DNA from: Gemmatimonadota bacterium
GTDB lineage: Bacteria; Gemmatimonadota; Gemmatimonadetes; Palauibacterales; Palauibacteraceae
Assembly: GCA_039585235.1 (NCBI GenBank)
Contig: JBDGWG010000007.1
Span: 1 to 64,000 of the forward strand
Direction: 5' to 3'
Length of the DNA stretch: 64,000 nucleotides
In this document: positions 13,509 to 42,450 of the stretch, piece by piece
Position numbering within the stretch: the first letter of the stretch is position 1
Layout of the letters: each line of letters opens with the position of its first letter
Translations under genes and position numbers: made by a program
The notes under the pieces: model-generated
The model's database searches: none
What the model saw: only the letters and a program-made list of their open reading frames with translations
Told to the model about the DNA's origin: nothing

Positions 13509-15332
13509 ATGAAGAAGTTCGTCCAGGAGATTCACCGCCGCTCACTCTGGCAGGTGCTGGGTATCTATATCTTGGGTGCCTGGGGTGCTCTGCAGGTCGT
13601 GGACGTGCTGGCCCAGAACTTCGGACTTCCCGAGTGGTTCCCGGCCTTCGCGCTGGCTCTCCTGGTAATCGGTCTCCCGATTGTGCTGGCCACGGCGGTC
13701 GTGCAGGAAGGGGTTCGCGGGCCCGAGCCGGCCGGTGAAGCAGAGCCGGGTGGCGCCGAATCTCCGGCTCTCACGGCTCCGGTGAGCGAATCCTCCGGCA
13801 ACAATCTTTTCACATGGCGGAACGCGATCCTCGGTGGACTGGGAGCCTTCGCACTGTGGGGTGTCGTGGCCGCCGGATGGATGCTTTTCGGGCCCGGCAC
13901 GGGATCGGGGGCCGCTGCAACGGGGTCGACAGCCGACCGGGCCGAGGCCGGCCGAGACCTTCGTTCAGTCGCAGTGCTGCCGTTCGCCACCCGCCTCACG
14001 TCGGAGGAGGACGAGTACTTCGCTGAGGGGATGCACGACGACCTGCTGACCCAGCTCGCCAAGATCGACTCCCTCAAAGTGATCTCACGTACCTCGGTGA
14101 TGGAATACAAGGGGGTAAATCGGAACATCCGGGAGATCGCCGCCGAGCTCGAAGTGGCGACGGTGGTGGAGGGGGGTGTGCAGCGATCGGGAGATCGGGT
14201 GCGCGTGAACGTGCAGCTCATCGACGCGAGCACGGACCGGCACCTGTGGGCGGAGACGTACGACGAGGAGCTCACAGCGGCCAACGTATTCGCGATCCAG
14301 AGCGACCTGGCGAAGAAGATCGCGTCGGCTCTCCAGGCGACGCTGACGCCCGAGGTGGAAGAACGGATCGAGGAGCAGCCCACCGAGAGCCTCGAGGCAT
14401 ATGACCTGTACGTTCGCGGCAGGCTCATCCTGGATAATCGCGGAAGCACCAGGGACGGTGTGGAAACCGCAGCGGATCTGTATCGCCTGGCGATCTCCTC
14501 CGACCCGACCTACGCGCTCGCGCACGCCGGGCTGGCGAACGCGTATCTGCAGCTCTTCAACCTGGGTTACCTGTCCGAGGGGGAGGCGCTGCCACAGGCC
14601 AGCACGGCCCTGGAGCGGGCGCTCGCGTTGAACCCGGATCTTGCGGAAGGGCGTTCACTGCGCGCGCAGCTTCTGCGGCTCGAGCTGCGACCCGCGGAGG
14701 CGGAACGGGAGGTCCGGCGCGTCCTTGAGCTCAACCCTGGAAGCGCCCAGGCGCACGCGCAGTACAGCCGTGTGCTGCTCGATCTCGGACGGCCTGAGGA
14801 ATCGGTCCTCGAGGCTCGCCGCGCGGTGCAACTGGATCCTCTCTCGGTCGGCCTGCGCAGAGTCCTGGTGGCCCGGCTGGCCTGGGTGGGTGACTACGAC
14901 GGGACGATCGAAGAGTCACGTAACCTGCTCGAGCTCGAGCCCGCCGAGGCCGACGCGCACTACTACGCCGGTATGGCCCGAACCATCAAGGGCGAGACGG
15001 CGAGTGCGATCGAATCGTTCCGTCAGGCGATCGAACTGAACCCGGATGATCCGTACTATCCTGCCGGCCTCGCTTGGGCCTATGCGAAGGCGGGGGATCG
15101 GGAGCAATCGCTCGAATACCTCCGTCGGGCCGAGACGGCCGGGGTGCCGCTGAAAGAAGTCGGATTGGTATACGGGGCGCTCGGTGACCTGGACCGGGCG
15201 TTCGATTACCTCGAGCGCGGCCTTGAAACGGAGCCGGGAACGCTGGCCGGTATCAAAGCGGATCCCTCGGCCGAGCCCCTGCGCGCCGACCCGCGTTGGG
15301 ATGCGTTGATGGAGAAGATCGCCCGCGAGTAG
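13509..15332 (+). CDS. TPR-repeat protein with N-terminal TM and TolB-N-like module
   Basis: 'SVAVLPFATRLTSEEDEYFAEGMHDDLLTQLAKIDSLKVISRTS' is the TolB-N-like motif. The C-terminal half is TPR-like (AxxY, LNP patterns). Confidence 0.75.
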   Translation: MKKFVQEIHRRSLWQVLGIYILGAWGALQVVDVLAQNFGLPEWFPAFALALLVIGLPIVLATAVVQEGVRGPEPAGEAEPGGAESPALTAPVSESSGNNLFTWRNAILGGLGAFALWGVVAAGWMLFGPGTGSGAAATGSTADRAEAGRDLRSVAVLPFATRLTSEEDEYFAEGMHDDLLTQLAKIDSLKVISRTSVMEYKGVNRNIREIAAELEVATVVEGGVQRSGDRVRVNVQLIDASTDRHLWAETYDEELTAANVFAIQSDLAKKIASALQATLTPEVEERIEEQPTESLEAYDLYVRGRLILDNRGSTRDGVETAADLYRLAISSDPTYALAHAGLANAYLQLFNLGYLSEGEALPQASTALERALALNPDLAEGRSLRAQLLRLELRPAEAEREVRRVLELNPGSAQAHAQYSRVLLDLGRPEESVLEARRAVQLDPLSVGLRRVLVARLAWVGDYDGTIEESRNLLELEPAEADAHYYAGMARTIKGETASAIESFRQAIELNPDDPYYPAGLAWAYAKAGDREQSLEYLRRAETAGVPLKEVGLVYGALGDLDRAFDYLERGLETEPGTLAGIKADPSAEPLRADPRWDALMEKIARE

Positions 15333-15363: not shown

Positions 15364-15564
15364 TCAGATCGCGCAGGTCATGTCCGTGCCGCAGCACATC
15401 GGCGACTTCACCATCCCGTGGCCGTTGGGGCACTTCGACACGTGAACCGTGCTTCCGTCGTCCTTCGTCAGCGTCTCGTGTACCAGCTCCGAGCCGCAGC
15501 TCCCGCACGTGATGATGCCGACGCTCATTCCGCAGGTGGGGCAGGTATACAGGGCCATCTTCAT
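15364..15564 (-). CDS. Cys-rich small protein (66 aa, 10 Cys; zinc-ribbon/metal-binding-like)
   Basis: 'CPTCG...CGSCG...KCPNGHG...MCCGTDMTC'. GGAAG lies 7 nt upstream of the ATG. Divergent from the B12-rSAM operon. Confidence 0.5.
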   Translation of the reverse strand: MKMALYTCPTCGMSVGIITCGSCGSELVHETLTKDDGSTVHVSKCPNGHGMVKSPMCCGTDMTCAI

Positions 15565-15722
15565 AGCTTCCGGTCTCGGGTTGTCGGTCGATACAACTGA
15601 ACTCGCTTCAGCCTAGTGTATTGGCCCGACTTGGGCCAGATTAGAGTCCCCTCCTCACCTCGTGTCCACGAGCGGCATCATTCGCCCGGGTGAAGGTCGC
15701 CGCAACGGGAACGGCGAGTTCC

Positions 15723-16106
15723 ATGACGATCAACCTGTACGCCGCATGGATCGGCTTCCTGCTTGGCGCTCTCGCCGGGGCGACCTCGGGCCTGTTCTTC
15801 GCCCGGGACGACTGGCTCGGCGGGTATGCCGACTGGCGGCGCCGTATGATCCGTCTCGGACACGTGTCCTTCTTCGGCATCGGTTTCCTCAACCTCGGCT
15901 TCTACCTCACGGTCCACGCGCTCGATATGCAGTCGTGGGCGGGCGTGCAGCTTCCTGCGGACCTGCTGCTCATCGGCGCGGTGACAATGCCCATCGTCTG
16001 CTACCTGTCGGCCTTCCGGAAGAGCCTGCGGCACCTGTTCTTTCTCCCGGCCGGGGCCGTCACACTGGCGCTCGCCGTGTTCCTGTTGAGGCTCGCATCG
16101 CCATGA
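15723..16106 (+). CDS. small polytopic membrane protein (hypothetical, 4 TM)
   Basis: ATG at 15723 (MTINLYAAWIGFLL...). The stop overlaps the start of the radical SAM gene (ATGA at 16103..16106). Confidence 0.6.
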   Translation: MTINLYAAWIGFLLGALAGATSGLFFARDDWLGGYADWRRRMIRLGHVSFFGIGFLNLGFYLTVHALDMQSWAGVQLPADLLLIGAVTMPIVCYLSAFRKSLRHLFFLPAGAVTLALAVFLLRLASP

Positions 16107-17416
16107 ACGTCGGCCTGCTCGCGATCAGCGGCATACGGGTGGTGGACGAAGAGCTGCTCCGCCTCGGCCTCACCCTGCCGGGTTTCGTGGAGCGCAGCGA
16201 GACGATCGCCTCGTTGCCGAGCCTGGGACTGCTGACGCTCGCGGCGCTGACTCCCCCACAGCACGACGTGCACTACCTGGAAGTGCCGGATCCGCGCTCG
16301 CTGGTCGATCTCCCGAACGGTCTCGACCTCGTCGCCATCTCTTCCTACAGCGCGCAGATCTTCGAGGCCTACGATCTGGCGGATCGTTATCGAGAGGCCG
16401 GCGTTCCGGTCGTGATGGGAGGACCGCATGTGAGCGCCCTGCCGGAGGAGGCGATCGAGCACTGCGACGCCGTGGTGGTGGGGGAGGGGGAGCCGCGTTG
16501 GAACGACGTCCTTTCGGACGCCGAGGCGGGCCGGCTGGCAGGCGTCTACGACGCCCGACCGTACGACTACGACCTGGCCGAGGCGCCGGTCCCGGTGTTC
16601 GAGCTGCTCGACATCTCGCGATACAACCGTCTGACCGTGCAGGCGAGCCGGGGCTGCCCCCATCGGTGCGAGTTCTGCGCCAGCTCGGTGCTGCTCACGG
16701 ACAGGTACAAGCAGAAGCCGGCTGCGAACGTGGTTCGGGAAATCGATCGCATTCTCGAGATCTGGGAGCATCCCTTCATCGAGTTCGCGGACGATAACGC
16801 GTTCGTTGACCGGAGCTATTGGAAAGAGCTACTGCCGGCGCTGGCCGGCAAGGGGCTCCGATGGTTCGCGGAGACCGACCTGTCGGCGGCCCGCGATCCG
16901 CAGTTGCTGGATCTGATGAGGGAGAGCGGGTGCGCCCAGGTGCTCGTCGGCTTCGAGAGCCCGGTGGAGGCTGGCTTGCCGGGGCTCGAGCTGCGCAGCG
17001 ACTGGAAGCGCAAGCGGTTCCCCGAATACCGGGACGCGATCCGTGAGATCCAGGCCCACGGAATCACCGTGAACGGCTGCTTCGTGATCGGACTCGACGG
17101 TCACGGGCCCGAAATCTTCGACCAGGTGTTCGACTTCGTCCGGGACTCGGAACTGTACGAAGTCCAGGTCACTATCCTCACCCCGTTTCCCGGCACGCCG
17201 CTGTACGATCGCCTGGAGCGCGAGGAAAGGATCATGAAGCCCGGGGCGTGGGACCGGTGCACCCTGTTCGACGTGAACTACCGGCCGGCGAACCTGACCG
17301 TGGCGGAGCTCGAGAGCGGATTCAAAGAGCTCGCCCAGCGGCTCTACAGCGACGAGCTCACCCGGTGGAGACGCAGCCGATTCAAGAGGTCTCGTGAGAA
17401 GGGAAGGACGTCGTGA
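16103..17416 (+). CDS. B12-binding domain-containing radical SAM protein (class B rSAM)
   Basis: N-terminal Rossmann-like B12-binding region (MNVGLLAISGIRVVDEE...VVMGGPHVSALPEEAIEHCDAVVVGEGE) followed by 'SRGCPHRCEFCAS' (CxxxCxxC). The longer ORF 15662..17416 is an out-of-frame upstream extension. Confidence 0.85.
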   Translation: MNVGLLAISGIRVVDEELLRLGLTLPGFVERSETIASLPSLGLLTLAALTPPQHDVHYLEVPDPRSLVDLPNGLDLVAISSYSAQIFEAYDLADRYREAGVPVVMGGPHVSALPEEAIEHCDAVVVGEGEPRWNDVLSDAEAGRLAGVYDARPYDYDLAEAPVPVFELLDISRYNRLTVQASRGCPHRCEFCASSVLLTDRYKQKPAANVVREIDRILEIWEHPFIEFADDNAFVDRSYWKELLPALAGKGLRWFAETDLSAARDPQLLDLMRESGCAQVLVGFESPVEAGLPGLELRSDWKRKRFPEYRDAIREIQAHGITVNGCFVIGLDGHGPEIFDQVFDFVRDSELYEVQVTILTPFPGTPLYDRLEREERIMKPGAWDRCTLFDVNYRPANLTVAELESGFKELAQRLYSDELTRWRRSRFKRSREKGRTS

Positions 17417-17817
17417 ATCAACAGAGAAGCGTGTCCGTGCTGTTCTATCTGGCCGCGTTGTACGATGGAGTGCTTGGAGTGGCGTTTCTGGTCGCCGCCC
17501 CGGCACTGTTCGAGTGGGTCGGCGTCACGCCGCCAAACCACTTCGGGTACGTGCACTTTCCGGCCGCGCTCCTGATCGTGTTCGCACTGATGTTCGTCAC
17601 GATCGCCCGGAACCCGGTCGCTAACCAGGGCCTCATTCTGTACGGGATCCTGCTCAAGGTCTCCTACTGCGCCGTGGCGTTCTACCACTGGGCCGCCGGC
17701 GGCATCCCGTTCATCTGGAAACCGTTCGCCATCGCCGACCTTGTCTTCCTCGTCCTGTTCGCATGGGCCTCCACCGTGCTGAGCAGGCAGGCGGACCTGG
17801 AGGATGCGCCGGCCTGA
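17413..17817 (+). CDS. small polytopic membrane protein (hypothetical, 4 TM)
   Basis: ATGA overlap with the rSAM stop. 134 aa with four hydrophobic helices. Confidence 0.6.
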   Translation: MNQQRSVSVLFYLAALYDGVLGVAFLVAAPALFEWVGVTPPNHFGYVHFPAALLIVFALMFVTIARNPVANQGLILYGILLKVSYCAVAFYHWAAGGIPFIWKPFAIADLVFLVLFAWASTVLSRQADLEDAPA

Positions 17818-17914
17818 TTCCACTGAATCCTTCCCTCCGGAGCCGTGTTCTTGTAGCCTCGGGGCGGCAGCGCACATCGGGTGCGCGCCATCCCTAACGG
17901 GATCACTGACTTAA

Positions 17915-19684
<1,770 letters not shown>

Positions 19685-30984: not shown

Positions 30985-32436
30985 ATGGAAGAATCCGCTT
31001 CTGCGGGTACTGGTGTGCCCGCCGCGGTCTATGACGACGATATCGTCAAGAGATTCGCGATCGCGACGATCCTCTGGGGAGCCGTGGGCATGCTCGTCGG
31101 AGTCATCATCGCCCTGCAGCTGGCGTGGTGGCCCGCCAACCTCGGCCTTCCCTGGACGACGTTCGGTCGGCTGCGCCCCCTGCACACCAACGCCGTGATC
31201 TTCGCCTTCGGCGGTAACATCTGCTTCACCGGGATCTACTACTCGATGCAGCGTCTTCTGAAGACGCGCATGTGGAGCGACGCGCTGTCGAAGATTCACT
31301 TCTGGGGCTGGCAGCTGATCATCGTGTCGGCCGCCCTGACGTTTCCGCTTGGCCTGTCGCAATCTCGCGAGTACGCCGAGCTGATCTGGCCGATCGACAT
31401 TGCGATCACGCTGATCTGGGTGGTGTTCGCGATCAACTTCTTCGGCACGATCGCCATCCGGAGGGTGAAGCACATCTACGTGGCGATCTGGTTTTACATG
31501 TCGTTCGTGATCACGATCGCGGTGCTCCACATCGTCAACAACCTGGCGATGCCAGCCACCTTCCTGCGCTCCTACCCGCTCTACTCGGGCATGACAGACG
31601 CGCTCGTCCAGTGGTGGTACGGGCACAACGCGGTAGGCTTCTTCCTCACAACGCCGTTCCTCGGGCTGATGTACTATTTCCTCCCGAAGGCGGCTGAGAA
31701 GCCGATCTACAGCTACCGGCTGTCGATCGTCCATTTCTGGGGCCTGATCTTCCTCTACATCTGGGCCGGCCCGCACCACCTGCTGTATTCAGGCCTCCCG
31801 GATTGGGTCCAGACGCTCGGCATGGTGTTCAGCATCGTGCTGCTCGCACCGTCATGGGGCGGGATGCTGAACGGCCTCCTCACCTTGCGTGGAGCCTGGC
31901 ACAGGCTGCGCACCGACCCGGTCCTCAAGTTCATGGTCGTTGGGGTGAGCTTCTACGGGATGAGCACGTTCGAGGGGCCGATGATGTCGATCCGGGCCGT
32001 GAACGGCCTGGCCCACTTCACGAACTGGGTCATCGGCCACGTTCACTCCGGGGCGCTCGGGTGGAACGGCATGATCTCGTTCGCTGTGCTGTACTGGCTG
32101 GTGCCGAGGCTATGGAACAAGCCGCTGGCAAAACCGAACCTGGCGACTCAGCACTTCTGGCTCGCCACCATCGGCATCGTGCTGTACACCGTGTCCATGT
32201 GGGCGGCCGGTCTGATGGAAGGCCTGCAGTGGCGCGCGATCGGTGACGGCGGGCAGCTGGCCAACCCGATCTTCATCGACATCGTGCACCGGCTGGAGCC
32301 GTTCTACTGGCTGCGGCTGCTCGGCGGATCCCTGTACTTCGTAGGCGCCCTCATGGCGCTCTACAACTTCTGGAAGACTATCCGGGGACCGGAGTCGGTC
32401 TCGACGGACGCCTCGGCGCCCGTCCCGGCCACCTGA
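30985..32436 (+). CDS. ccoN: cbb3-type cytochrome c oxidase subunit I
   Basis: 12-TM heme-copper oxidase core ('HFWGWQLIIVSA', 'WWYGHNAVGFFLT', 'HHLLYSG'). Confidence 0.9.
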   Translation: MEESASAGTGVPAAVYDDDIVKRFAIATILWGAVGMLVGVIIALQLAWWPANLGLPWTTFGRLRPLHTNAVIFAFGGNICFTGIYYSMQRLLKTRMWSDALSKIHFWGWQLIIVSAALTFPLGLSQSREYAELIWPIDIAITLIWVVFAINFFGTIAIRRVKHIYVAIWFYMSFVITIAVLHIVNNLAMPATFLRSYPLYSGMTDALVQWWYGHNAVGFFLTTPFLGLMYYFLPKAAEKPIYSYRLSIVHFWGLIFLYIWAGPHHLLYSGLPDWVQTLGMVFSIVLLAPSWGGMLNGLLTLRGAWHRLRTDPVLKFMVVGVSFYGMSTFEGPMMSIRAVNGLAHFTNWVIGHVHSGALGWNGMISFAVLYWLVPRLWNKPLAKPNLATQHFWLATIGIVLYTVSMWAAGLMEGLQWRAIGDGGQLANPIFIDIVHRLEPFYWLRLLGGSLYFVGALMALYNFWKTIRGPESVSTDASAPVPAT

Positions 32437-32449
32437 CCGCGAGGCACCG

Positions 32450-33178
32450 ATGGCTGACGAAACGAAGAACCACGGATCCGAGAAGAAATACGGGCAGTTC
32501 CACCGCCGGGTGTTCGAGGCCAACATCGTGAACTTCGCCATTTGGGCGACGATCGCGATCCTCATCGGAGGCATCGTGGAGATCGTCCCGATGTTCACGC
32601 CGGCAGGAACGGAAATCTCTCCCGACGTGACCCCGTACACCGCGCTCGAAGTAGCAGGTCGCGACATCTACGTGTCGGAGGGGTGCTACCTGTGCCACTC
32701 GCAGTGGGTGCGGCCGATGCGGGCCGAGATCCTGCGGTATGGCGCGTGGTCCAGAGCCTGGGAATATCAGTACGACCGGCCATTCCAGCTGGGTTCGCGT
32801 CGGATCGGGCCCGACCTGCACCGCGTCGGGAACAAATATCCGGACGCATGGCACTACGAGCACATGCGAGACCCGCGGAGCACGTCTCCCGGCAGCGTGA
32901 TGCCACCCTACGCGTGGCTACTGACGAACCGCATCGACGCGGGCGACGTGCAGGCCTCCATGAAGGCCCTTCGAAAGACGGGAACTCCCTACTCCGACGA
33001 GGATATAGCCGGGGTGGAAGCGAGTCTCGCTACGCAGGGAGGAGAGATCGTGGGACGGCTGGGTGATGCGGGGATCCAGTCTGATCCGGACCGTGCGATC
33101 ATCGCGATGATCGCATACCTGCAGCGGCTCGGCGTGGACGGTCGCGCGGCACTTCAGAAGCAGGGAGTAGAGTACTGA
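32450..33178 (+). CDS. ccoO: cbb3-type cytochrome c oxidase subunit II (mono-heme)
   Basis: 'CYLCHSQWVRP' heme c site after an N-terminal TM. RBS GAGG upstream. Confidence 0.9.
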   Translation: MADETKNHGSEKKYGQFHRRVFEANIVNFAIWATIAILIGGIVEIVPMFTPAGTEISPDVTPYTALEVAGRDIYVSEGCYLCHSQWVRPMRAEILRYGAWSRAWEYQYDRPFQLGSRRIGPDLHRVGNKYPDAWHYEHMRDPRSTSPGSVMPPYAWLLTNRIDAGDVQASMKALRKTGTPYSDEDIAGVEASLATQGGEIVGRLGDAGIQSDPDRAIIAMIAYLQRLGVDGRAALQKQGVEY

Positions 33179-33357
33179 TGAATCCCTTGGTTCAGCAGGC
33201 CTCGGAATCCATTGGCATGGGCTGGATGGCCACCATCCTGACCCTTCTGTTCATCGTCGCGTTCTTCGCCTGGGTGTGGTACGCCTTCACGCCAAGGAAC
33301 AAGCAGAAGTTCGAGGACGCGGCCCTGCTGCCCTTCGAGGAGGGAGTCGACAGGTGA
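33178..33357 (+). CDS. ccoQ: cbb3 oxidase small subunit CcoQ-like (59 aa, 1 TM)
   Basis: Not in the ORF track because it is under 60 aa. I read it from the sequence: MNPLVQQASESIGMGWMATILTLLFIVAFFAWVWYAFTPRNKQKF... TGATG overlap with ccoO. Confidence 0.6.
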   Translation: MNPLVQQASESIGMGWMATILTLLFIVAFFAWVWYAFTPRNKQKFEDAALLPFEEGVDR

Positions 33358-33866
33358 GCAAGGAGACGAACCGGGTGCTCGGCCATGCCGACGAGAGCGA
33401 CGGCATCGAGGAATATGACAACCCGCTCCCCGACTGGTGGCTCGGGCTTCTGTGGTTCACCGTGATCTGGGCCGTCGCCTACGCCGTGCACTATCACTTC
33501 ATCGGCAACCGGTCGCAGGAGGGGCGCCTGGCTGCCGAGATGCAGGCCGCCGAGGTGCGCTGGCCCGCTGGGGCCGCTGCCGCCGTCTCGTTCGCGATCA
33601 CGCCGGAGGCGGTGGCTGCCGGTGAGGCCGTGTATGCGCAGAACTGCGCCATGTGTCACGGAGCGGACCTCGAGGGTGGAATCGGAGCTGCGCTGAACGA
33701 CGGCGAATGGATCCACGGCAGTGATTCTGAGACCGTAATCCGAATCATCACCGAGGGTGTACCGGAGAAGGGTATGCTGACCTGGGGTCCCCTTCTCGGG
33801 CCCGAGAAGATCAATCAGGTAGCGGCCTACGTTCTCGAGAAGAACGCGGAATACGTCGGCGAGTAG
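33354..33866 (+). CDS. ccoP: cbb3 oxidase subunit III-like, single heme c (short CcoP)
   Basis: GTG at 33354 overlaps the ccoQ stop. 'NPLPDWWLGLLWFTVIWAVAY' TM helix and a single 'CAMCHG'. Confidence 0.75.
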   Translation: MSKETNRVLGHADESDGIEEYDNPLPDWWLGLLWFTVIWAVAYAVHYHFIGNRSQEGRLAAEMQAAEVRWPAGAAAAVSFAITPEAVAAGEAVYAQNCAMCHGADLEGGIGAALNDGEWIHGSDSETVIRIITEGVPEKGMLTWGPLLGPEKINQVAAYVLEKNAEYVGE

Positions 33867-33878
33867 GCGAGTGGGCGG

Positions 33879-35270
33879 GTGGTTCGCCACCCTCCCGGAC
33901 GCAGATCGCCGAAACTGGGGATAGACGTGCTGGGTTTCTCACAGACGCGGGATTGGGTGTACCCGCAGTCCATCACCGGCCGGTTCACGACGATCCGGCG
34001 CTGGACCTTTCTGGGTCTGCACGTCCTTCTGCTGATCACGCCGTGGATCATGGTCAGCGGCAATCCGGCGCTTCGGGTGGACCTTCCGGCGCGCCGGGTC
34101 TTCCTGTTCGGCAGCATATTCACGGCCTCAGATACGATCTTCCTGCTGCTCGTGCTGTGGTTCCTCGCGTTCTCGCTGTTCTTCTTCACGGCCGTGTTCG
34201 GAAGGATATGGTGCGGGTACGCCTGCCCGCAGACGGTCTTCCTGGAGTCCTGGATCCGGCCGATCGAGCTGTGGATCGAGGGAGACCGCCTGACGCGGAA
34301 GCGGCGTGACGCCAGGGGGTGGACGTTCGATCGAGTATGGCGTAAGGCCGCCAAGTGGTCGGTGTTCCTCGCGGTGTCGGTATTCCTGGCGATGGCCGGA
34401 ATGAGTATCTTTGCCGGAGCGCGCGAGTTGTGGACCGGGCAGGCCGGTCCGGTGGAGTACTCTCTCACGGCGATCTTCACGTTCTTCTGGTTCTGGGACT
34501 TCACATGGTTCCGCGAGCAATTCTGCAGCTACGTATGTCCCTACGCGCGATTCCAGAGTGCACTGGCGGACGATGAGTCTCTCACCGTTGGCTACATCAC
34601 CGAGCGCGGTGAGCCGCGGGAAGCCGGAAAACAGGCGGCGCTCGACGGTCGGTGCATCGACTGCAACAAGTGTGTGGCCGTCTGTCCGCAGGGGATCGAC
34701 ATCCGCGACGGGTTCCAGCTGGAATGCATCCAGTGCGCCCGCTGCATCGACGCGTGCGTGAGCGTGATGGAGAGGCTGGGTCACCCGACGCTCGTGGCCT
34801 ACGGATCGATTGCGGAGTCCGAGGGCCGAAAGGTGCGACGGTGGCGCCCCCGCACGTTCGTGTACGGGACGATACTCGTCGCGATCATCGCGGTGGGCGG
34901 CGTGCTGCTGGCACGGCGCGTGCCCTTCGAAGCGACCGTGAACCGGGCGCCCGGATCCCTCTACACGGTGGACTCGGACGGCTCGACACGGAACACGTTC
35001 CTCCTCAAGATCACGAACAAGGATCCCGGCGAAGCCTCGGTCCAATACGATATTGCCGTGTCCGGCCTGGCGGGAGCCGAAGTGATCGCGCAATCGGTCG
35101 AGTTGAGTTCCACGGAATCCCGCACGGTCCCCCTGATAGTCCGGGTTCCGCCCTCTTCGGAGCTCAGTCGAACCACGCCGTTCGAAGTGAGCGTGACGGA
35201 CGGTGATGGGGCGATCGTGCTGCACCCCACGTTCAAGACAGGAGCGCAGATTGGCTCAACAGGTTCGTAA
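33879..35270 (+). CDS. ccoG: cytochrome c oxidase accessory protein CcoG/FixG (polyferredoxin)
   Basis: 'RIWCGYACPQTVF' and 'CIDCNKCVAVCPQGIDIRDG...CIQCARCIDAC'. Confidence 0.9.
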   Translation: MVRHPPGRRSPKLGIDVLGFSQTRDWVYPQSITGRFTTIRRWTFLGLHVLLLITPWIMVSGNPALRVDLPARRVFLFGSIFTASDTIFLLLVLWFLAFSLFFFTAVFGRIWCGYACPQTVFLESWIRPIELWIEGDRLTRKRRDARGWTFDRVWRKAAKWSVFLAVSVFLAMAGMSIFAGARELWTGQAGPVEYSLTAIFTFFWFWDFTWFREQFCSYVCPYARFQSALADDESLTVGYITERGEPREAGKQAALDGRCIDCNKCVAVCPQGIDIRDGFQLECIQCARCIDACVSVMERLGHPTLVAYGSIAESEGRKVRRWRPRTFVYGTILVAIIAVGGVLLARRVPFEATVNRAPGSLYTVDSDGSTRNTFLLKITNKDPGEASVQYDIAVSGLAGAEVIAQSVELSSTESRTVPLIVRVPPSSELSRTTPFEVSVTDGDGAIVLHPTFKTGAQIGSTGS

Positions 35271-35406
35271 GTACGACCGGCTCCTGTGGCCGATCATGAT
35301 TGTCGTCGGCCTCCTTATCGTGATCATCATGAACGCGATATTCATCTACGTGGCCGTGTCGGATCGGGATGAAGTCGTTCCATCCTACCACACGGAATCG
35401 CGCTGA
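35251..35406 (+). CDS. FixH-like single-TM stub (51 aa)
   Basis: TTG at 35251 with GGAG 6 nt upstream. 'KYDRLLWPIMIVVGLLIVIIMNAIFIYVAV' resembles the FixH N-terminus, but the ~100-aa periplasmic part is missing. Confidence 0.4.
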   Translation: MAQQVRKYDRLLWPIMIVVGLLIVIIMNAIFIYVAVSDRDEVVPSYHTESR

Positions 35407-37679
35407 TCACTTCCCGTTGTCCCCACTGTGGCACGCCGGTCGAAGGGCCCGATGACACTTGGTGCTGCCACGGGTGCGAGATGGCGGCCGCCATCATCCG
35501 GGACGCCGGCCTCGAGCGCTATTACGAGTACCGCGAGGAGTACGCCCCACGCCCCGGGCCCCTGCGCCCGGGATGGGATGCTGTGCCGGTCACCGTCTGC
35601 GACGACGGTTGCGCGGAGGTGCGACTCGTCCTCGACGGCCTGCGCTGCGCCTCGTGCGTGTGGCTGACCGAACACATCCTGCAAGCCACGCCCGGTGTCG
35701 AAGAAGCGACCGTGAGCTACGCCACCGGCCGGGCGAGCCTCCGGTGGGATCCCGAGACCGTGGATCTCGGAACCCTGGCCGGCAAGGTCGCCGCGCTCGG
35801 TTATCGACCGCGCCTTCTGGGTGAGGAGAGCAAGCCCGACCAGGGTCTCGTGATCCGGCTTGGCGTGGCGACGTTCGCAGCCCTCAACATCATGATGATG
35901 TCGGCGGCCCTCTACCTGGGCTGGGTATCCGCGATGGAAGAGCGTTACGCGGCGCTGTTCCGTTGGGCCTCGCTGCTCCTCGCCACCCCGGTTGCGTTGT
36001 GGTGCGCCGAGCCGTTCTTCTCCGGGGCGATTCAGGGTCTGAGAAATCGGGTCCTCCACATGGACCTCCCGATCGCGCTGGCGGTGGCCGTGCTGTACGT
36101 GCACGGCCTGGTCTCCACGCTCGTCGGTGCTGACACGTACTTCGATTCGCTCTCGATGCTCGTGGCCCTGCTGCTCGCCGGTCGCATGCTGGAAGGACGG
36201 GGTCGCCGCCGGGCCGCGGAGGCGGCCGTTTCACTCGCCGCGGCGCTTCCGCCGACGGCCCGCCGAAGGGTCGGAGACTCGGTGGAGGTCGTGCCGGCCG
36301 AAGACCTGGTCCAGGGCGACCTGATCGACGTGGGGGCCGGGGAGGAGTTCGCGGCCGACGGCGTGGTGGCGGACGGCGAGGCCACGGTGCGCCTGGCCTT
36401 GATCACCGGCGAGGCCGAGCCCGTGGTCATTGCGGTTGGGGACGAAGCAGTCTCGGGCACCGTGCTGGTGGATGGGGCGCTCACGGTTCGGGTGGAGCGC
36501 GTGGGAGAGGAAACCACTATTCAGCGCATGGCCGCGGACCTCCGGGCGGCTGCCGATCGCCCCGTCCGCCTCTCGATGGCGGACCGCATCGCGCCGTGGT
36601 TCACTGCGGCGACCCTGGTCGCGGCTACGTTGACGGCAACGGGCTGGCTGCTCGCGGGGGAGAGCGGAACGGCCCTCCGGTCGTGCGTCGCCGTGCTCGT
36701 CGTCGCCTGCCCGTGCGCCCTGGCCCTGTCGAAGCCACTCGCTGCGGCCGCCGGTCTCGGTGCGGCCGCCCGTCGAGGCCTCATGTTCCGCTCCGCCGAT
36801 GGCCTGCTCGACCTGGTGGACGTAGACACCGTCGGCCTCGACAAGACGGGGACGGTCACCGAAGGAGACCTCATGGTGGTGGGCGCGGACGACTCCACGC
36901 TGCGCATCGCGGCCGGGCTCGAGCGCTTCAGCATGCATCCGATAGCCCGGGCGATCGTCGGAGAGGCGGTCGAACGCGGGATCCCGCTACCCCGGGCCGA
37001 GGGCGTGAGGGAGACAATCGGAAGGGGCATTGCGGGTCGCGTGGATGGCGCTGACTGGGAGCTTCTGGCGGGCGGACCCGGCGAGGTCGTCCTCCGAAAC
37101 CGCGAAGGTGAAGCCGGGCGGATCCGGCTCGGGGACGCCGTTCGTTCGGACTCCTCAGAGGCGGTGGCGCAGCTCGCAGCTCGCGGGCTCGATGTCGTGC
37201 TCCTGACCGGGGATCACAAGGACGTGGCCGGACGGATCGCGGCCGAAGCGGGTGTCACGAACGTATGGGCGGACGTGGATCCGGCGGGCAAGGCCTCGTG
37301 GGTACGAGCTCGCCAGGAATCCGGTGGTCAGGTCCTGTTCGCGGGTGATGGCCTGAACGACGGACCGGCGCTGGCGGCCGCCGACGTGGGAGTAGCCATG
37401 GGGACCGGAGCCGCGAGCAGTGTCCTGGTGGCGGACGGCGTGATCTCGACGCGATCGCTCAAGCCCCTCGTCTCGGGCTTCCAGGCAGCCTCGGCCTGTC
37501 AGCGGGCCATCCGTTGGAACCAGCGACGATCGATCGCCTACAACATCGTGGCTGTGAGTGCGGCGGCGGTGGGTTTGGTCAATCCGCTCGTGGCCGCCAT
37601 CCTGATGCCGGCGTCGAGCGCCATGGTGGTCTGGGGCTCGTCCCGTATAGAGGCTTCGATGAACGGCGGGCGCGCATGA
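35403..37679 (+). CDS. ccoI: copper-translocating P-type ATPase CcoI/FixI (start codon uncertain)
   Basis: 'DKTGTVTEG', 'GDGLNDGPAL', 8-TM core. The N-terminal metal-binding motif 'CPHCG...WCCHGC' lies in frame upstream of the first ATG (35481). The frame opens at 35373 with no ATG/GTG/TTG before the motif, so CTG 35403 or an ATC start is the alternative. Confidence 0.8.
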   Translation: MITSRCPHCGTPVEGPDDTWCCHGCEMAAAIIRDAGLERYYEYREEYAPRPGPLRPGWDAVPVTVCDDGCAEVRLVLDGLRCASCVWLTEHILQATPGVEEATVSYATGRASLRWDPETVDLGTLAGKVAALGYRPRLLGEESKPDQGLVIRLGVATFAALNIMMMSAALYLGWVSAMEERYAALFRWASLLLATPVALWCAEPFFSGAIQGLRNRVLHMDLPIALAVAVLYVHGLVSTLVGADTYFDSLSMLVALLLAGRMLEGRGRRRAAEAAVSLAAALPPTARRRVGDSVEVVPAEDLVQGDLIDVGAGEEFAADGVVADGEATVRLALITGEAEPVVIAVGDEAVSGTVLVDGALTVRVERVGEETTIQRMAADLRAAADRPVRLSMADRIAPWFTAATLVAATLTATGWLLAGESGTALRSCVAVLVVACPCALALSKPLAAAAGLGAAARRGLMFRSADGLLDLVDVDTVGLDKTGTVTEGDLMVVGADDSTLRIAAGLERFSMHPIARAIVGEAVERGIPLPRAEGVRETIGRGIAGRVDGADWELLAGGPGEVVLRNREGEAGRIRLGDAVRSDSSEAVAQLAARGLDVVLLTGDHKDVAGRIAAEAGVTNVWADVDPAGKASWVRARQESGGQVLFAGDGLNDGPALAAADVGVAMGTGAASSVLVADGVISTRSLKPLVSGFQAASACQRAIRWNQRRSIAYNIVAVSAAAVGLVNPLVAAILMPASSAMVVWGSSRIEASMNGGRA

Positions 37680-37820: not shown

Positions 37821-39458
37821 CTACTCGCGAGCGGCGGGAGCGCCTCTCCCCGGCGCCGATTCGTACAGGACGGGGCGAATGACGTCGGAATGTAAGGTCC
37901 ACCACTCACGCGCCCGGTCCAGGTTCCACGTCTCCTCCAGAGGTACGGATCTGAGGGCAGCGTCCATCTCCTCTGCAGTCTGGTAGCGCTCTTCGGGCCA
38001 TTTCTCCAGGCACTTCAGCACGATCGACTCGAGTTCGGCCGGGATCTCGATTTCCGTGACCTCTGACGGTGGCACGGGAGTCTTTCGCACCTGGTCGACC
38101 AGGGTCTGCAGCTGGGTCCGGCGCTGAAACGGCGGCTGGCCGGTCAAGAGGTAGTATGCGACAGCTCCGAGTCCGTAGAGGTCGGCGCGAGTGTCCACCC
38201 GCCCCTCGTCACGGATCGCTTCCGGAGCCATGTATTCAGGGGTTCCCAGGATGAGGCCCGCCTTGGTCACGCCTTCACCGTCTCCCGAGTCCACGTGCTT
38301 CGCGAGTCCGAAGTCCAGGACCTTCACGTAGTCGAACAACCCTCCCCGCTGCGTGAGGAAGATGTTCGCAGGTTTCATGTCCCGGTGCACGATGTGGCGG
38401 CCGTGGGCCTCCGCCAGGGAGCCACACACCTGCGTCAGGAGAAAGATCGTCCGCTCGGCCCCCAGTGGACCGAACCGCTGCACGAGGCGCTGGAGGTCGA
38501 GCCCTTCCAGGTATTCCATCGCGTAGTAGAAGGTATTCTGACCCGCGCGACCGAAGTCGAAGATCGTGATCGTATTGGGATGCGTGAGACTCGAGGAGAC
38601 CTGTACCTCTCGCTCGAAGCGGGCGAGGGCGTCCAGGTCCAGGCTTCCCGAAACCCGCAGGACCTTAACCGCACTGGGTCGGCACATTCGGGCGTGGCGG
38701 GCGACGAACACCTCTCCCATGCCACCTCTTCCCATCTTCCGTTCGATGATGTAGTTGCCGAGTTGCCTCGCCTTATGAGCCTTGCGGCGCAGGCTGTACA
38801 GCGTGCGTGTGACCAGGACCGAAGTGGCTGCCAGGATGAGAAGTCCGACGGCCAGAACGACGAGGTGGTTCTGGAAGGCCTCCTGTCCGCCCCTCCCGGC
38901 CCAGTATTCCCGGGCCTCGGGCATGAACGCGTAACTGAACACCTGGGCGAGGGCTGGAGCGGCGACGGCTATCGCTCCCAGACTCACCTGGTATTCGACT
39001 CGCCACGGAATCACCGCGGCGGGAATGAAGAGCAGCAGCGCGATCGCGAGTTCGGGCGGGTAGTCAGGGCTGATTACGCCCATGCTGAATACCACCAGAA
39101 CCATGTTAACCGCGAGTACGGCGAACGCGGTGACCTGGAGGCGTCGTACGCTTGGCGCTCCGATGAATAGCAAGCCGAACGCGAGGGCGAACGAGAGGAG
39201 ATGCCCCGCATCGAGCCACGCCTCCCATCTCTCCAGGGCGTTGGCGGCTAGCTGGGGCCTGTCGATGAATCCACGGGACAACAGGATCAGAATCAGACTG
39301 ATCGCCAGGCCGAGCCCGAAGACGAGACGGCATCGACCTGTGAGGAGCGCCCGCTCCTCCTCACCGAAAGAGCGATCCGCGGTGAGTGGCAGAGACCCCG
39401 AGGTCGCCAGGTCTGGCTCGCCCAACGGATGCATGAAGATCTCGTCCGTCACGGACAT
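37821..39458 (-). CDS. Ser/Thr protein kinase with N-terminal ~270-aa polytopic membrane domain
   Basis: ATG at 39458 (GGGGG upstream). 'GRGGMGEVFVARH', 'VKVL', 'HRDMKPANIFL', 'DFGLAK', and 'APE' are Hanks motifs in the C-terminal half. Six or seven hydrophobic helices lie at the N-terminus. Confidence 0.85.
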   Translation of the reverse strand: MSVTDEIFMHPLGEPDLATSGSLPLTADRSFGEEERALLTGRCRLVFGLGLAISLILILLSRGFIDRPQLAANALERWEAWLDAGHLLSFALAFGLLFIGAPSVRRLQVTAFAVLAVNMVLVVFSMGVISPDYPPELAIALLLFIPAAVIPWRVEYQVSLGAIAVAAPALAQVFSYAFMPEAREYWAGRGGQEAFQNHLVVLAVGLLILAATSVLVTRTLYSLRRKAHKARQLGNYIIERKMGRGGMGEVFVARHARMCRPSAVKVLRVSGSLDLDALARFEREVQVSSSLTHPNTITIFDFGRAGQNTFYYAMEYLEGLDLQRLVQRFGPLGAERTIFLLTQVCGSLAEAHGRHIVHRDMKPANIFLTQRGGLFDYVKVLDFGLAKHVDSGDGEGVTKAGLILGTPEYMAPEAIRDEGRVDTRADLYGLGAVAYYLLTGQPPFQRRTQLQTLVDQVRKTPVPPSEVTEIEIPAELESIVLKCLEKWPEERYQTAEEMDAALRSVPLEETWNLDRAREWWTLHSDVIRPVLYESAPGRGAPAARE

Positions 39459-41575
39459 CGGAACCCCCTGTCGCGCGTCTCGACCGGCCAGCGAAGAAAC
39501 GTGACCGAGTAGTCTCCCCGGGTGCCCCCTGGTGGAGTCCACCGGACTTCCCAGAGATAACCTCCACGGCCTCCAGACTCGATTCCCCGCACCTCCACGA
39601 AACGATCGTCGTCCCAGGTGACGATCGGTTCTTCCCCCGACCGCGATCGGCGAAGTTCGAGCATCGGACCGTCCGAAGGGAGCAGAGAGCCCGGCGGTGC
39701 GTCCAGCCATCGCACGGTGACCGTATCACTTTCGCAGCGCGTTTGCTTGACGACCAGGTGCTCGGGGCGAGGGTCTCGCGAACGCGGGAAGATCTTGCGT
39801 CGCGCTCCGGGATCGCCCGAGATGGGTTCTACCCGGGCGTAATCTCTGTCGCTCAGTTGTGCGGTCAGCTCCACGATTTCGTCCTGCAGGTATTCGGCGA
39901 ATCCGGGTCCGTAGAGCGTGGATCCACCCTCGTAGTGCTGGGCCTGGTACTCCTCCCGCGTCGCCACGTACTGCATGTACCCGTTGGCCAGTCCGACGAC
40001 TACCGTCGCTCGAGCGCCAAGGTTCCTTTCCGACGACGTGCGCAGCATCGCGGCCCGAATCCGGAACCCGACCTCGGTGGTCATCTCGACGGGCACCGCA
40101 GCCGCCACCAGGTCGCCTATCTGTACCACCATGAGCTGCGATTGCGTCGGAAGATGGAGGTCTCCCAGTCCCAGACGCAGGATCCAGGGCAATTCGCGCT
40201 TCGGGGCCTGGCAGCCGCCGCTGACCTTGTCGACCGCACCTTCCTTCGCGTAGAGAGGGAAGAGTCCGAGAACCTTCCAGTCCTTCAGATTGCTCTGGCT
40301 GCCTTCCGAGCCGGCCGCCGCTCCGGCACCGACCTGAGGTTCGGGACACAGGTGAGGTGAGGCACCCGGGCCGATGAGCTGGACCGTCCGAAAGGACCTC
40401 GTTAACCGCAAATCGGCGTGAAGGTCCTTACCGGCTCGCTCGTATATCCCGATCGCCCGGGCTGCGAGAGAATCTCCGATTTCGTTCACGAACGCCCGGG
40501 CCGAACTGACGCACTCCGATCCGGGCGCCCACGATTCGGACCTCCACTCGTCAAGGGCCCGGGGCGTGCGAGGGCCTCCCGGCCGGACTCCGCTCCTCTG
40601 TGCAGGTCGATCACAGTCGAGTTCGAGGCTTCCCTCCAGAATGACGTCTCCTTCAGCCCCGTTCGCCAGCATGTGGACGCTTGCCGGCGCGAAGCGCGAC
40701 GTGACACCCGCCAGATCATCCATGTGTCTCTCCAGACCGCGCTCCACGAATCCCGAGACGTCTCCATCGTAAAGGTCGTTGGCGGGAGGATTCCCCGTTG
40801 GATGGTATGCGAACAGGCTCAACGCGCCTGCCGGTATCGTATCCCCGTATGAGGAGATCGTGTCCACGCGAAGCATCGTCCATGTGGGATCAACGGCCCG
40901 CTGCTCCGGGCTCAGGCCGTGAGGGGGTGTCGGTCGGCCATGCACGGCCGGGTCTCCGACGCGCGTCTCGAGGCTTCGATTCCGCGTGAATCCCCAGACC
41001 GGTTCTTGCACCCAGCCCGCTACGGCCCGGGTCATTCCCTCCGACGCCGCGCGGATCGCGCTGGCAACTCGATCCGCCAGGAACTCGACCACGGCCGGGT
41101 CGAATCCCGGAATGCCAGGTGCAAACTGGTTGTAGCTACGGCTGGTGAAGTAATGCCCGGGCCCCGCGTGCGTATGAGTAGCAGCGAGCACCAACCTATC
41201 CGCTCCGATGCCGGTCTCGACCACGACCCGCTCGGCTACCTCCCGATGCAGGAGAAACGAGGGCTGCGAGAGGTCGAGCGTGACCCAGGCAATCCTTTCT
41301 CCCCGCCCATCCTCCAGGACCATAGCCCGAGCGTACAGACGTTGCCGATGGCCGCGAGCCACTCCTCCTGCCGGTCCATAGTCGCTGAGGCCGAGTCCGG
41401 GCGGGGGGGTGATGTCAGCGCGTCCGAACCCGGCTTTGAGACCCGATTCTACGGACGAAGCGGGTTCCGGAGATCGGTGTGCCGGCGTGGTGACTCGCGT
41501 GGACGCACAGCTGCCCAGTGCGACCCATACTGCGGCCGTGAGAAGAGCCGGAATCCACGGAGCGACACACGACAT
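39449..41575 (-). CDS. neutral/alkaline non-lysosomal ceramidase-family protein, signal/lipoprotein
   Basis: Ceramidase-like blocks ('ITPPPGLGLSDYG', 'RAMVLEDGRGERIAWVTLDL', 'VVQIGDLVAAAVPVEMTTEVGFRIR'). The N-terminus 'MSCVAPWIPALLTAAVWVALGSCAS'. It overlaps the kinase start by 10 nt. Confidence 0.7.
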   Translation of the reverse strand: MSCVAPWIPALLTAAVWVALGSCASTRVTTPAHRSPEPASSVESGLKAGFGRADITPPPGLGLSDYGPAGGVARGHRQRLYARAMVLEDGRGERIAWVTLDLSQPSFLLHREVAERVVVETGIGADRLVLAATHTHAGPGHYFTSRSYNQFAPGIPGFDPAVVEFLADRVASAIRAASEGMTRAVAGWVQEPVWGFTRNRSLETRVGDPAVHGRPTPPHGLSPEQRAVDPTWTMLRVDTISSYGDTIPAGALSLFAYHPTGNPPANDLYDGDVSGFVERGLERHMDDLAGVTSRFAPASVHMLANGAEGDVILEGSLELDCDRPAQRSGVRPGGPRTPRALDEWRSESWAPGSECVSSARAFVNEIGDSLAARAIGIYERAGKDLHADLRLTRSFRTVQLIGPGASPHLCPEPQVGAGAAAGSEGSQSNLKDWKVLGLFPLYAKEGAVDKVSGGCQAPKRELPWILRLGLGDLHLPTQSQLMVVQIGDLVAAAVPVEMTTEVGFRIRAAMLRTSSERNLGARATVVVGLANGYMQYVATREEYQAQHYEGGSTLYGPGFAEYLQDEIVELTAQLSDRDYARVEPISGDPGARRKIFPRSRDPRPEHLVVKQTRCESDTVTVRWLDAPPGSLLPSDGPMLELRRSRSGEEPIVTWDDDRFVEVRGIESGGRGGYLWEVRWTPPGGTRGDYSVTFLRWPVETRDRGFRCP

Positions 41576-41586
41576 GGCGCGCGCCT

Positions 41587-42450
41587 TCACCACAGGGCTC
41601 CGAGCACCAGGGAATCGCTGAACCCCACACCGAGCCACCAGGACGTACCCGGAGAAGGGCCCGATCCCGATCGAGCCCCTCCGTCCTGTGCCGCGAGAAC
41701 GTGTAGCTCGACCGATACGTAGCGCCGTTCACGGCCGACCGCGACGTCGAGCCCGAAATCGAGATGAGTCACGCCGGAATCCTGAAAATAGGCCGCCTCG
41801 TCCGGGTCCTGGCGGTTCACCTCCTGGCCGGCGCTCCAGCCTGCGAGGGCGCTGACGTAAGCCGCCACGATGGGGTCGTAGGATGGCAGCACCGGCACCC
41901 TGAGGTCCATGCTCGTCTCGAAATAGGCGCCTCGCACGCGTCCCACGTCCATCCAGAGCGCAAGACGTGGAACTAGCGGACCCGCGGTCAGCCGGACCGT
42001 TCCGTACAGCTCGGTCGTGTCCACCGCGTCAGCCGACTGGCCGAACGCTCCCTCCGCGAACAGGTATCGCGTCAAGCCTCCCGTGAAGTCGAGCACTTCG
42101 GAGCGTCCGGCTACCTCGACCCACAGGTCGTTCTGGCCGAACCAGGCCTGCCCGAGTCCGGCACTCGTCGGGTCGGCCGCATCGGCCGAGCCGAGTCTGA
42201 TCGTACTCCACCACCCAACCGTGATACTCGAGCGGTCCCCGGATGCCGAAGAAAACAGATCGGGCTGAAGAACCCACGCGCTGCTGCGTGTGACTCCCCG
42301 CCACACGTAGCTGCTTCGGACTACGGCGTCGCCCCCGAAGATCCAGCCGGACTGAGCCGAGAGCGTGCCCGGGATGAGGGACCCCAACAGGAGGAGGGCC
42401 AGACTCCGGATTCCGGGGTGCGACCATGCAGACCGAGTGGATGCGCGCAT
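41587..42450 (-). CDS. secreted/outer-membrane beta-barrel-like protein (hypothetical)
   Basis: ATG at 42450. The signal peptide is 'MRASTRSAWSHPGIRSLALLLLGSLIPGTLSAQ'. Alternating hydrophobic pattern and C-terminal aromatic residue. 11-nt gap to the ceramidase. Confidence 0.5.
   Translation of the reverse strand: MRASTRSAWSHPGIRSLALLLLGSLIPGTLSAQSGWIFGGDAVVRSSYVWRGVTRSSAWVLQPDLFSSASGDRSSITVGWWSTIRLGSADAADPTSAGLGQAWFGQNDLWVEVAGRSEVLDFTGGLTRYLFAEGAFGQSADAVDTTELYGTVRLTAGPLVPRLALWMDVGRVRGAYFETSMDLRVPVLPSYDPIVAAYVSALAGWSAGQEVNRQDPDEAAYFQDSGVTHLDFGLDVAVGRERRYVSVELHVLAAQDGGARSGSGPSPGTSWWLGVGFSDSLVLGALW

Follow-up and report, generated by a model that had tools for sequence, protein, structure and literature searches.

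Class B radical S-adenosylmethionine (SAM) enzymes carry out very hard reactions, such as the alkylation of unactivated carbon, and most of their subfamilies are without known function. Methylation is the commonest reaction of the class. HpnP and HpnR, the methylases of hopanoids at C-2 and C-3, act on a membrane lipid, and we know of no dedicated membrane partner for either. HpnJ and BchE, which also carry a B12 domain, perform ring contraction or cyclization on membrane-bound substrates, and class B enzymes acting on lipophilic compounds therefore need not be methylases. Mmp10 and the glutamine C-methyltransferase, also B12 radical SAM enzymes, modify a protein, methyl-coenzyme M reductase, and are encoded beside it. 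In mercury methylation, corrinoid-dependent methyl transfer by HgcAB is tied to the membrane by transmembrane helices. Here we describe a three-gene locus from a Gemmatimonadota bacterium (assembly GCA_039585235.1, contig JBDGWG010000007.1), which lies within the 64,000-nucleotide stretch that we analyzed (positions 1 to 64,000 of the contig; hereafter, the window). It encodes a predicted class B radical SAM enzyme between two small membrane proteins, M1 and M2. We show that this trio is a self-contained cassette, whose gene order and 4-nt overlaps are conserved over many phyla.

Homologous loci were collected in a scan of one genome per species, which confirmed the radical SAM gene in at least 584 species genomes; the best 80 loci, all from metagenome-assembled genomes, were analyzed, and all statements on conserved neighbors refer to these 80. 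HpnP and the uncharacterized "HpnP-like" clades have the same domains as the trio enzyme, namely B12-binding, Radical_SAM and DUF4070 (PMC10697835), but neither a squalene-hopene cyclase nor any hpn gene is a conserved neighbor of the trio, and none was found among the larger open reading frames (ORFs) scanned in the window. HpnJ and BchE are among the best NCBIfam matches to the enzyme, whereas the trio has no hopanoid or chlorophyll gene context. The archaeal enzymes GrsA, GrsB and Gmm, likewise of class B, combine a Rossmann domain and a TIM barrel with a C-terminal helix, and they cyclize or methylate membrane-spanning tetraether lipids (PMC13459092); none of the genes tes, mss and gms is among the conserved neighbors of the trio, and no membrane partner has been described for these enzymes. 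"GrsA homologues" found by BLAST have been reported in Planctomycetota, Cloacimonadota, Acidobacteriota and Desulfobacterota (PMC11868695), the same phyla in which the trio occurs. Mmp10 and the glutamine C-methyltransferase offer a model for one of the alternatives weighed below, in which M1 or M2 is the substrate, but the hosts of the trio are bacteria without methyl-coenzyme M reductase. The likeness to HgcA is of architecture only: HgcA does not belong to the radical SAM enzymes, it carries its membrane domain as a fusion where the trio has separate proteins, and no sequence similarity between HgcAB and the trio was found. A 2026 review of lipid-modifying radical SAM enzymes, which deals with Tes, Mss, Gms, GrsA/B, Gmm, Cds, HpnH/J/P/R, Jaw5 and candidates for ladderanes, uses neither "transmembrane" nor "membrane protein" anywhere in its text (PMC13459092). 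A full-text literature search returned no description of the trio; a paper on EF-P that names a B12/radical SAM protein proved irrelevant to it.

The trio is conserved in order and overlap across phyla

The radical SAM gene (positions 16103..17416 of the forward strand, 437 amino acids) overlaps a gene for a membrane protein at either end. M1 (15723..16106, forward) encodes an integral membrane protein of 127 residues and four helices, and its TGA stop is contained in an ATGA (16103..16106) that also starts the radical SAM gene. M2 (17413..17817, forward) encodes a second four-helix integral membrane protein, of 134 residues, and starts at the GTG of a GTGA (17413..17416) shared with the radical SAM stop. 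Both junctions were read directly from the sequence. The original prediction, made from the sequence of the window alone, had placed ATGA overlaps at both ends of the radical SAM gene; that at 16103 stands, whereas the one at 17413 is a GTGA with a GTG start. For M1, the ATG at 15723 agrees with the JGI gene call, and the homologues all open with MTINLYAAW. For M2, gene callers put the start at GTG 17431, but 17413 fits better, because the alignment with homologues begins at residue 1 and relatives show the 4-nt overlap as well.

Searching the 80 loci by tblastn with the window proteins, we found M1 directly upstream of the radical SAM gene in 76, which makes it a near-obligate partner, and M2, either as such or in a divergent M2-like form, in 62, M2 being a frequent downstream partner. 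Among the other window proteins, the neighboring tetratricopeptide repeat (TPR) protein was found in two loci and ThiC in one. The 4-nt stop/start overlap is kept at 64 of 75 junctions between M1 and the radical SAM gene and, in loci with a downstream M2, at 39 of 56 junctions between the radical SAM gene and M2; gene calls made independently on megabase contigs show these overlaps too. When all ORFs of the 80 loci were clustered against each other, the radical SAM enzyme and M1 formed the top families, and the remaining large clusters were M2 and shadow reading frames within the radical SAM and M1 genes. No further neighbor family occurred in more than eight of these loci, the commonest genuine one being a protein-kinase family (eight).

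The homologues of the radical SAM enzyme come from at least a dozen named phylum-level groups. The best 120 database matches are full length and 68–100% identical, with labels that include Gemmatimonadota, Verrucomicrobiia, Armatimonadota, Thermoguttaceae, Zixibacteria, Spirochaetia and one "archaeon." Among the 80 loci, the labels are Gemmatimonadota, Planctomycetota, Acidobacteriota, NC10, Calditrichota, Zixibacteria, Ignavibacteria, Verrucomicrobiota (including Kiritimatiellales-like genomes and Victivallales), Rhodothermales, Cloacimonadota, Hydrogenedentota, Omnitrophota, Desulfobulbaceae and Obscuribacterales. Identity between phyla is 59–88% for the radical SAM enzyme, ∼42–83% for M1 and ∼45–92% for M2. 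The membrane genes are therefore co-conserved with the radical SAM gene well beyond Gemmatimonadota and Acidobacteriota, the groups in which the original prediction had proposed looking for such conservation. Because it recurs across phyla, the arrangement is far beyond chance; the retention of the overlaps points to co-translation in fixed proportions, and argues that the products of the three genes work together.

The radical SAM enzyme falls short of every curated family cut-off

Pfam recognizes three domains in the enzyme, all above their cut-offs: B12-binding (PF02310, residues 38–130, 49.0 bits against 32.1), Radical_SAM (PF04055, 52.8 against 29.5) and DUF4070 (25.2 against 22). The layout is an N-terminal B12-binding Rossmann domain, a radical SAM core and a C-terminal DUF4070, which bears out the earlier assignment of 16103..17416 to class B. 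The CxxxCxxC motif (C185-x3-C189-x2-C192) is invariant across 24 homologues, and T420, R423 and R424, in the basic/aromatic tail of DUF4070, are also invariant.

In NCBIfam, 22 models match the enzyme and none comes near its cut-off. The scores are 84.9 bits for HpnJ (cut-off 577.6), 83.6 for BchE (481.35), 83.3 for ApyD (750), 79 for PhpK (600), 68 for Sden_1168 (575), 62.9 for TIGR04072, the B12 radical SAM family of ladderane lipids (360), 59 for the MJ_0865 glutamine C-methyltransferase (360), 53.1 for HpnR (TIGR04367; 650) and 30.1 for TIGR03975 (281.85), a C-methyltransferase of peptides that are made ribosomally and then modified post-translationally (RiPPs). There is no HpnP model among the NCBIfam matches, and no Grs or Gmm model among the library matches. 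The closest solved structures to the family profile are remote (AprD4, 1.5e-11; TokK and CysS, ∼3e-4), and public labels of the homologues read only "radical SAM protein," "YgiQ family" or "hypothetical protein." Because no NCBIfam cut-off is neared and the solved relatives are only remote, we assign the enzyme, as judged from these comparisons, to an uncharacterized subfamily of class B. The 80 loci have neither a small precursor nor a RiPP gene as a conserved neighbor of the enzyme, and with sub-cut-off scores and no RiPP neighbors a RiPP-maturating methylase (TIGR03975, ApyD, TsrM/CysS-like) is not supported. The original prediction had set the enzyme apart from the characterized B12 radical SAM families that it named, and the NCBIfam scores agree; its view of an unrecognized B12 radical SAM system with membrane partners holds and is strengthened by the conservation described above. 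Neither of the two outcomes that would have overturned that view, a fit to a characterized family with matching neighbors or a lack of co-conservation of the membrane genes, was observed.

M1 and M2 are two unrelated families of small membrane proteins

Structure prediction confidently gave a four-helix bundle both for M1 (AlphaFold2; predicted local distance difference test score, pLDDT, 81.4) and for M2 (pLDDT 86). By hhalign, the two are no paralogues (probability 0.3%), in keeping with the earlier description of two unrelated four-helix membrane proteins of ∼130 residues on either side of the enzyme. Neither has any match above cut-off in Pfam, NCBIfam or PADLOC, four divergent M2-like variants likewise have none in family library scans, and the M1 and M2 profiles found nothing meaningful among the sequences of the PDB.

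Topology was predicted by positive-inside analysis, from the numbers of Lys and Arg in each loop over the alignments. For M1, it places the N terminus outside and both Arg/Lys-rich loops (WLGGYxxWRRRMxRLGH and RxxFRH) in the cytoplasm. These loops are better conserved than the variable outer loop, the first of them being nearly invariant (F25, F26, W31, L32, G33, G34, Y35, W38, R40, R41, R44, L45, H47). For M2, the predicted N terminus is inside, the conserved loops PPNHxGY and WKP face outward, and three invariant charged residues, D18, K82 and D109, lie within helices. In both proteins, conservation spans all four helices.

An exhaustive profile search with M1 yielded 516 representatives at 50% identity, essentially all of them standalone proteins of ∼100–180 amino acids; M1 is thus dedicated to the radical SAM context. 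The sole other context is a rare fusion of M1 to TPR (P0364). No true fusion of M1 to a radical SAM enzyme was found in this search; one candidate "Rosetta stone" (P0428) was rejected as a frameshift artifact. Each of the two is a small, dedicated membrane protein of four helices, and their families are almost confined to the trio.

Variant loci and inheritance

A divergent M2-like protein (26–37% identity) occurs in five loci: two have it upstream of M1 and one downstream, and in the other two it takes the place of M1. Two loci with an M2-like variant carry a gene for an Rce1-like (CPBP) intramembrane protease just upstream (L012, 2975–3985; L078, 3150–3938). In an Omnitrophota locus without M1 (L068, 139–8581), the M2-like gene shares its operon with three consecutive B12 radical SAM genes, a 137-residue soluble helical protein, an alpha/beta hydrolase, a polysaccharide deacetylase, a hexapeptide acyltransferase and an AMP-dependent ligase. 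A cluster of five B12-type remote paralogues lies on an IncF plasmid of Citrobacter portucalensis (L086; NZ_CP134684.1, 51.4–63.5 kb). The matched radical SAM enzyme is ∼32% identical to that of the window, and the partners are a protein of the GH3 family, an N-acetyltransferase, a PAP2 phosphatase and a fatty-acid desaturase; the cluster looks like an uncharacterized lipid-modification cluster. The gene content of these two loci gives weak hints of acyl or lipid substrates.

In a neighbor-joining tree, Gemmatimonadota form one clade, Desulfobulbaceae group together, as do many Pirellulales, and Acidobacteriota, Planctomycetota, Verrucomicrobiota and NC10 are intermixed. The tree fits vertical descent plus some transfer, or mis-binning. 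One contig labeled Akkermansiaceae (L006) probably is mis-binned: its trio is of the Gemmatimonadota type (80% identity) and nests inside that clade, and its TPR neighbor is 56% identical to that of the window (13509–15332). No orthologue of the radical SAM enzyme was found on plasmids, where the best match is 35% identical and M1 is absent, and M1 is also absent from the viral contigs of IMG/VR. In one lineage, related loci (L084 and L088/L089) share synteny around the trio and differ in the toxin-antitoxin pairs on both sides (MazE/Fic/PemK/RelE against HigB/helix-turn-helix), with the trio staying in place; L084 also has three genes with TIR domains near the trio.

A possible membrane-associated radical SAM enzyme

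We propose, with a probability that we put at roughly 45%, that M1, the radical SAM enzyme and M2 belong, as subunits or as obligate partners, to a single class B enzyme that is associated with the membrane and acts on a hydrophobic, membrane-resident substrate. The features of the two membrane proteins suggest a division of labor, with M1 docking the enzyme and M2 offering a polar site within or across the bilayer. The two conserved Arg-rich loops of M1 would face the cytoplasm and dock the soluble radical SAM protein on the inner face of the cytoplasmic membrane. The invariant Asp, Lys and Asp of M2 inside the bilayer, together with its conserved outward loops, would form a polar pocket, which may hold or hand on the substrate, for example the tail of a lipid, a polyprenyl compound or a quinone. 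The radical SAM protein would cleave SAM at its [4Fe-4S] cluster and use cobalamin to methylate an unactivated carbon of the substrate or, alternatively, make or rearrange a C–C bond on it; cyclization or rearrangement is possible too, as in GrsA/B, HpnJ and BchE (PMC13459092).

A number of points weigh against this proposal. An adjacent M2 is missing from about one-fifth of the loci, for example in Desulfobulbaceae and Kiritimatiellales-like genomes, although in at least two cases the contig stops at the radical SAM gene or shortly past it, so that M2 cannot be judged there. AprD4 is a B12-domain radical SAM enzyme reported to work without cobalamin; the B12 domain alone is therefore no proof of cobalamin use by the trio enzyme, for which cobalamin binding is predicted from the Pfam domain only. 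No membrane partners are described for the lipid-acting enzymes HpnP/R, GrsA/B, Gmm and BchE (PMC13459092), and the partners in the trio are thus without precedent. No gene of a lipid, quinone or isoprenoid pathway is a conserved neighbor of the trio, nor did a scan of the larger window ORFs find one; the two hints of a lipid substrate, from the Omnitrophota and Citrobacter loci, both come from distant relatives. We infer the substrate, the reaction and the physical complex from sequences, and the location of the substrate in the membrane from the nature of the partner proteins.

A bolder form of the proposal, which we consider quite unlikely, is that the trio forms a heteromeric complex integral to the membrane, the first of its kind among B12 radical SAM enzymes, and adds methyl branches or rings to the core membrane lipids of uncultured soil and sediment bacteria. 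A candidate role for such a complex would be the methylation or cyclization of bacterial branched tetraether lipids, of the branched glycerol dialkyl glycerol tetraether (brGDGT) type, or of other alkyl-chain lipids. These serve as paleoclimate biomarkers, and the enzyme that methylates or cyclizes them is still being sought.

The same features can be read in other ways. A nearly invariant first loop of M1 is expected at a modification site as much as at a docking site, and M1 (or M2) could itself be the substrate, undergoing a post-translational change such as methylation in that cytoplasmic loop. Enzyme and substrate genes are frequently adjacent, and the MJ_0865 glutamine C-methyltransferase model is among the matches to the enzyme. 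B12 radical SAM enzymes that methylate protein side chains are known (PMC13469106). We nevertheless hold this to be unlikely: the MJ_0865 match is far under its cut-off (59 against 360 bits), M1 and M2 are conserved along all four helices and well beyond one loop, and the reading leaves two unrelated membrane proteins to explain, with no evident role for a modified membrane protein of 127 residues. The charged residues within the M2 helices (D18, K82, D109) and the conserved outward loops of M2 would also suit a small permease or exporter, M1/M2, coupled to a radical SAM enzyme that alkylates a small molecule or a metal(loid), for detoxification, resistance or scavenging; such an arrangement would be loosely similar to HgcA and its membrane domain. 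The cassette is self-contained in varied genomic surroundings, and its phylogeny is partly mixed between phyla, suggesting some horizontal transfer. Yet M1 and M2 resemble no transporter family of Pfam or NCBIfam, there is no regulator, metal-binding protein or riboswitch nearby, and the lack of a plasmid orthologue and of M1 on viral contigs argues against a mobile resistance trait, so that coupled transport, too, seems an improbable function.

The lineage with toxin-antitoxin pairs and TIR-domain genes around its cassette, and a weak PADLOC match of the radical SAM enzyme to the candidate system PDC-M51A (E = 2.7e-6, in the B12-domain region only), could indicate an anti-phage defense or toxin-like conflict system. 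This we judge very improbable, given that M1 and M2 have no PADLOC match, that the flanking toxin-antitoxin genes swap between related genomes while the trio stays fixed, and that no defense gene is a conserved neighbor; moreover, the very high conservation across phyla and the single Gemmatimonadota clade are unlike fast-evolving defense genes, and neither the trio on plasmids nor M1 on viral contigs was found. Last, the title of the original prediction implied that a Cys-rich mini-protein (15364–15564, reverse strand, 66 amino acids), whose gene adjoins M1, belongs to the system. The gene is indeed divergent, at a distance of 158 nt from M1; the cysteines number eight (C8, C11, C20, C23, C45, C57, C58, C64), not 10. 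Its motifs (CPTCG, CGSCG, CPNGHG, MCCG...C) are zinc-ribbon-like, its CxxC pairs are typical of metal sites, and it has sub-threshold matches to DUF7479 and to the DVU_1557 redox family (E = 0.039), which would suit, for example, a rubredoxin-like electron donor for the cluster of the radical SAM enzyme. It reaches no family cut-off, however, and its gene is found in one of the 80 loci, that of the closest relative (L004), where the C-terminal Cys motif MCCG...C is replaced. Its membership in the system is thus extremely improbable, and we dropped it from the trio because it is not co-conserved.

Regulation and genomic surroundings

The intergenic region upstream of M1 (15565..15722, 158 nt) is the presumed site of the operon promoter. 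A promoter/terminator scan of it was uninformative, with no sigma-70-like site found. Rfam has no family upstream of M1 in the window and no riboswitch in 13 diverse related loci, which were scanned whole with their flanks. On the other side, thiC (18092–19684) begins 274 nt beyond M2. Its leader (17818–18091) contains no thiamine pyrophosphate (TPP) riboswitch at the Rfam gathering score or at E ≤ 1; a bacterial thiC without a detectable TPP riboswitch is unusual.

Elsewhere in the window, positions 30985–37679 hold a cbb3-type oxidase region, with a CcoN-like COX1 protein, FixG and a P-type ATPase for heavy metals that carries an HMA domain, which suggests a microaerobic or aerobic lifestyle of the host. 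A homologue of neutral/alkaline ceramidase (39449–41638, reverse strand; PF04734, E = 1.5e-51), encoded beside a Ser/Thr protein kinase, hints at sphingolipid-type metabolism in this bacterium. An ORF of 1434 amino acids without any Pfam match (47857–52161, reverse strand) is rich in Ala (25%), Glu (18%) and Arg (12%). Its coiled coil, of AAELEAAR-like sequence, runs to ∼900 residues, and a single hydrophobic segment lies near residue 1255; the ORF accounts for the strong AT skew of −0.37 and the G+C content of 69–70% at 48–52 kb.

Significance

Within the class B enzymes, the subfamily described here stands out by its identity of 59–88% across phyla, its presence in at least 584 species and its gene overlaps with two membrane families that are undescribed in databases. 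At the least, M1 and M2 are two new membrane-protein families and the radical SAM enzyme a new subfamily, and their joint annotation is warranted. If the proposed complex is true, it would show how a soluble radical enzyme reaches a substrate inside the bilayer. It would also provide a cloneable three-gene candidate for lipid or quinone modifications that are as yet unexplained in Planctomycetota, Verrucomicrobiota, Acidobacteriota, Gemmatimonadota and related uncultured groups.

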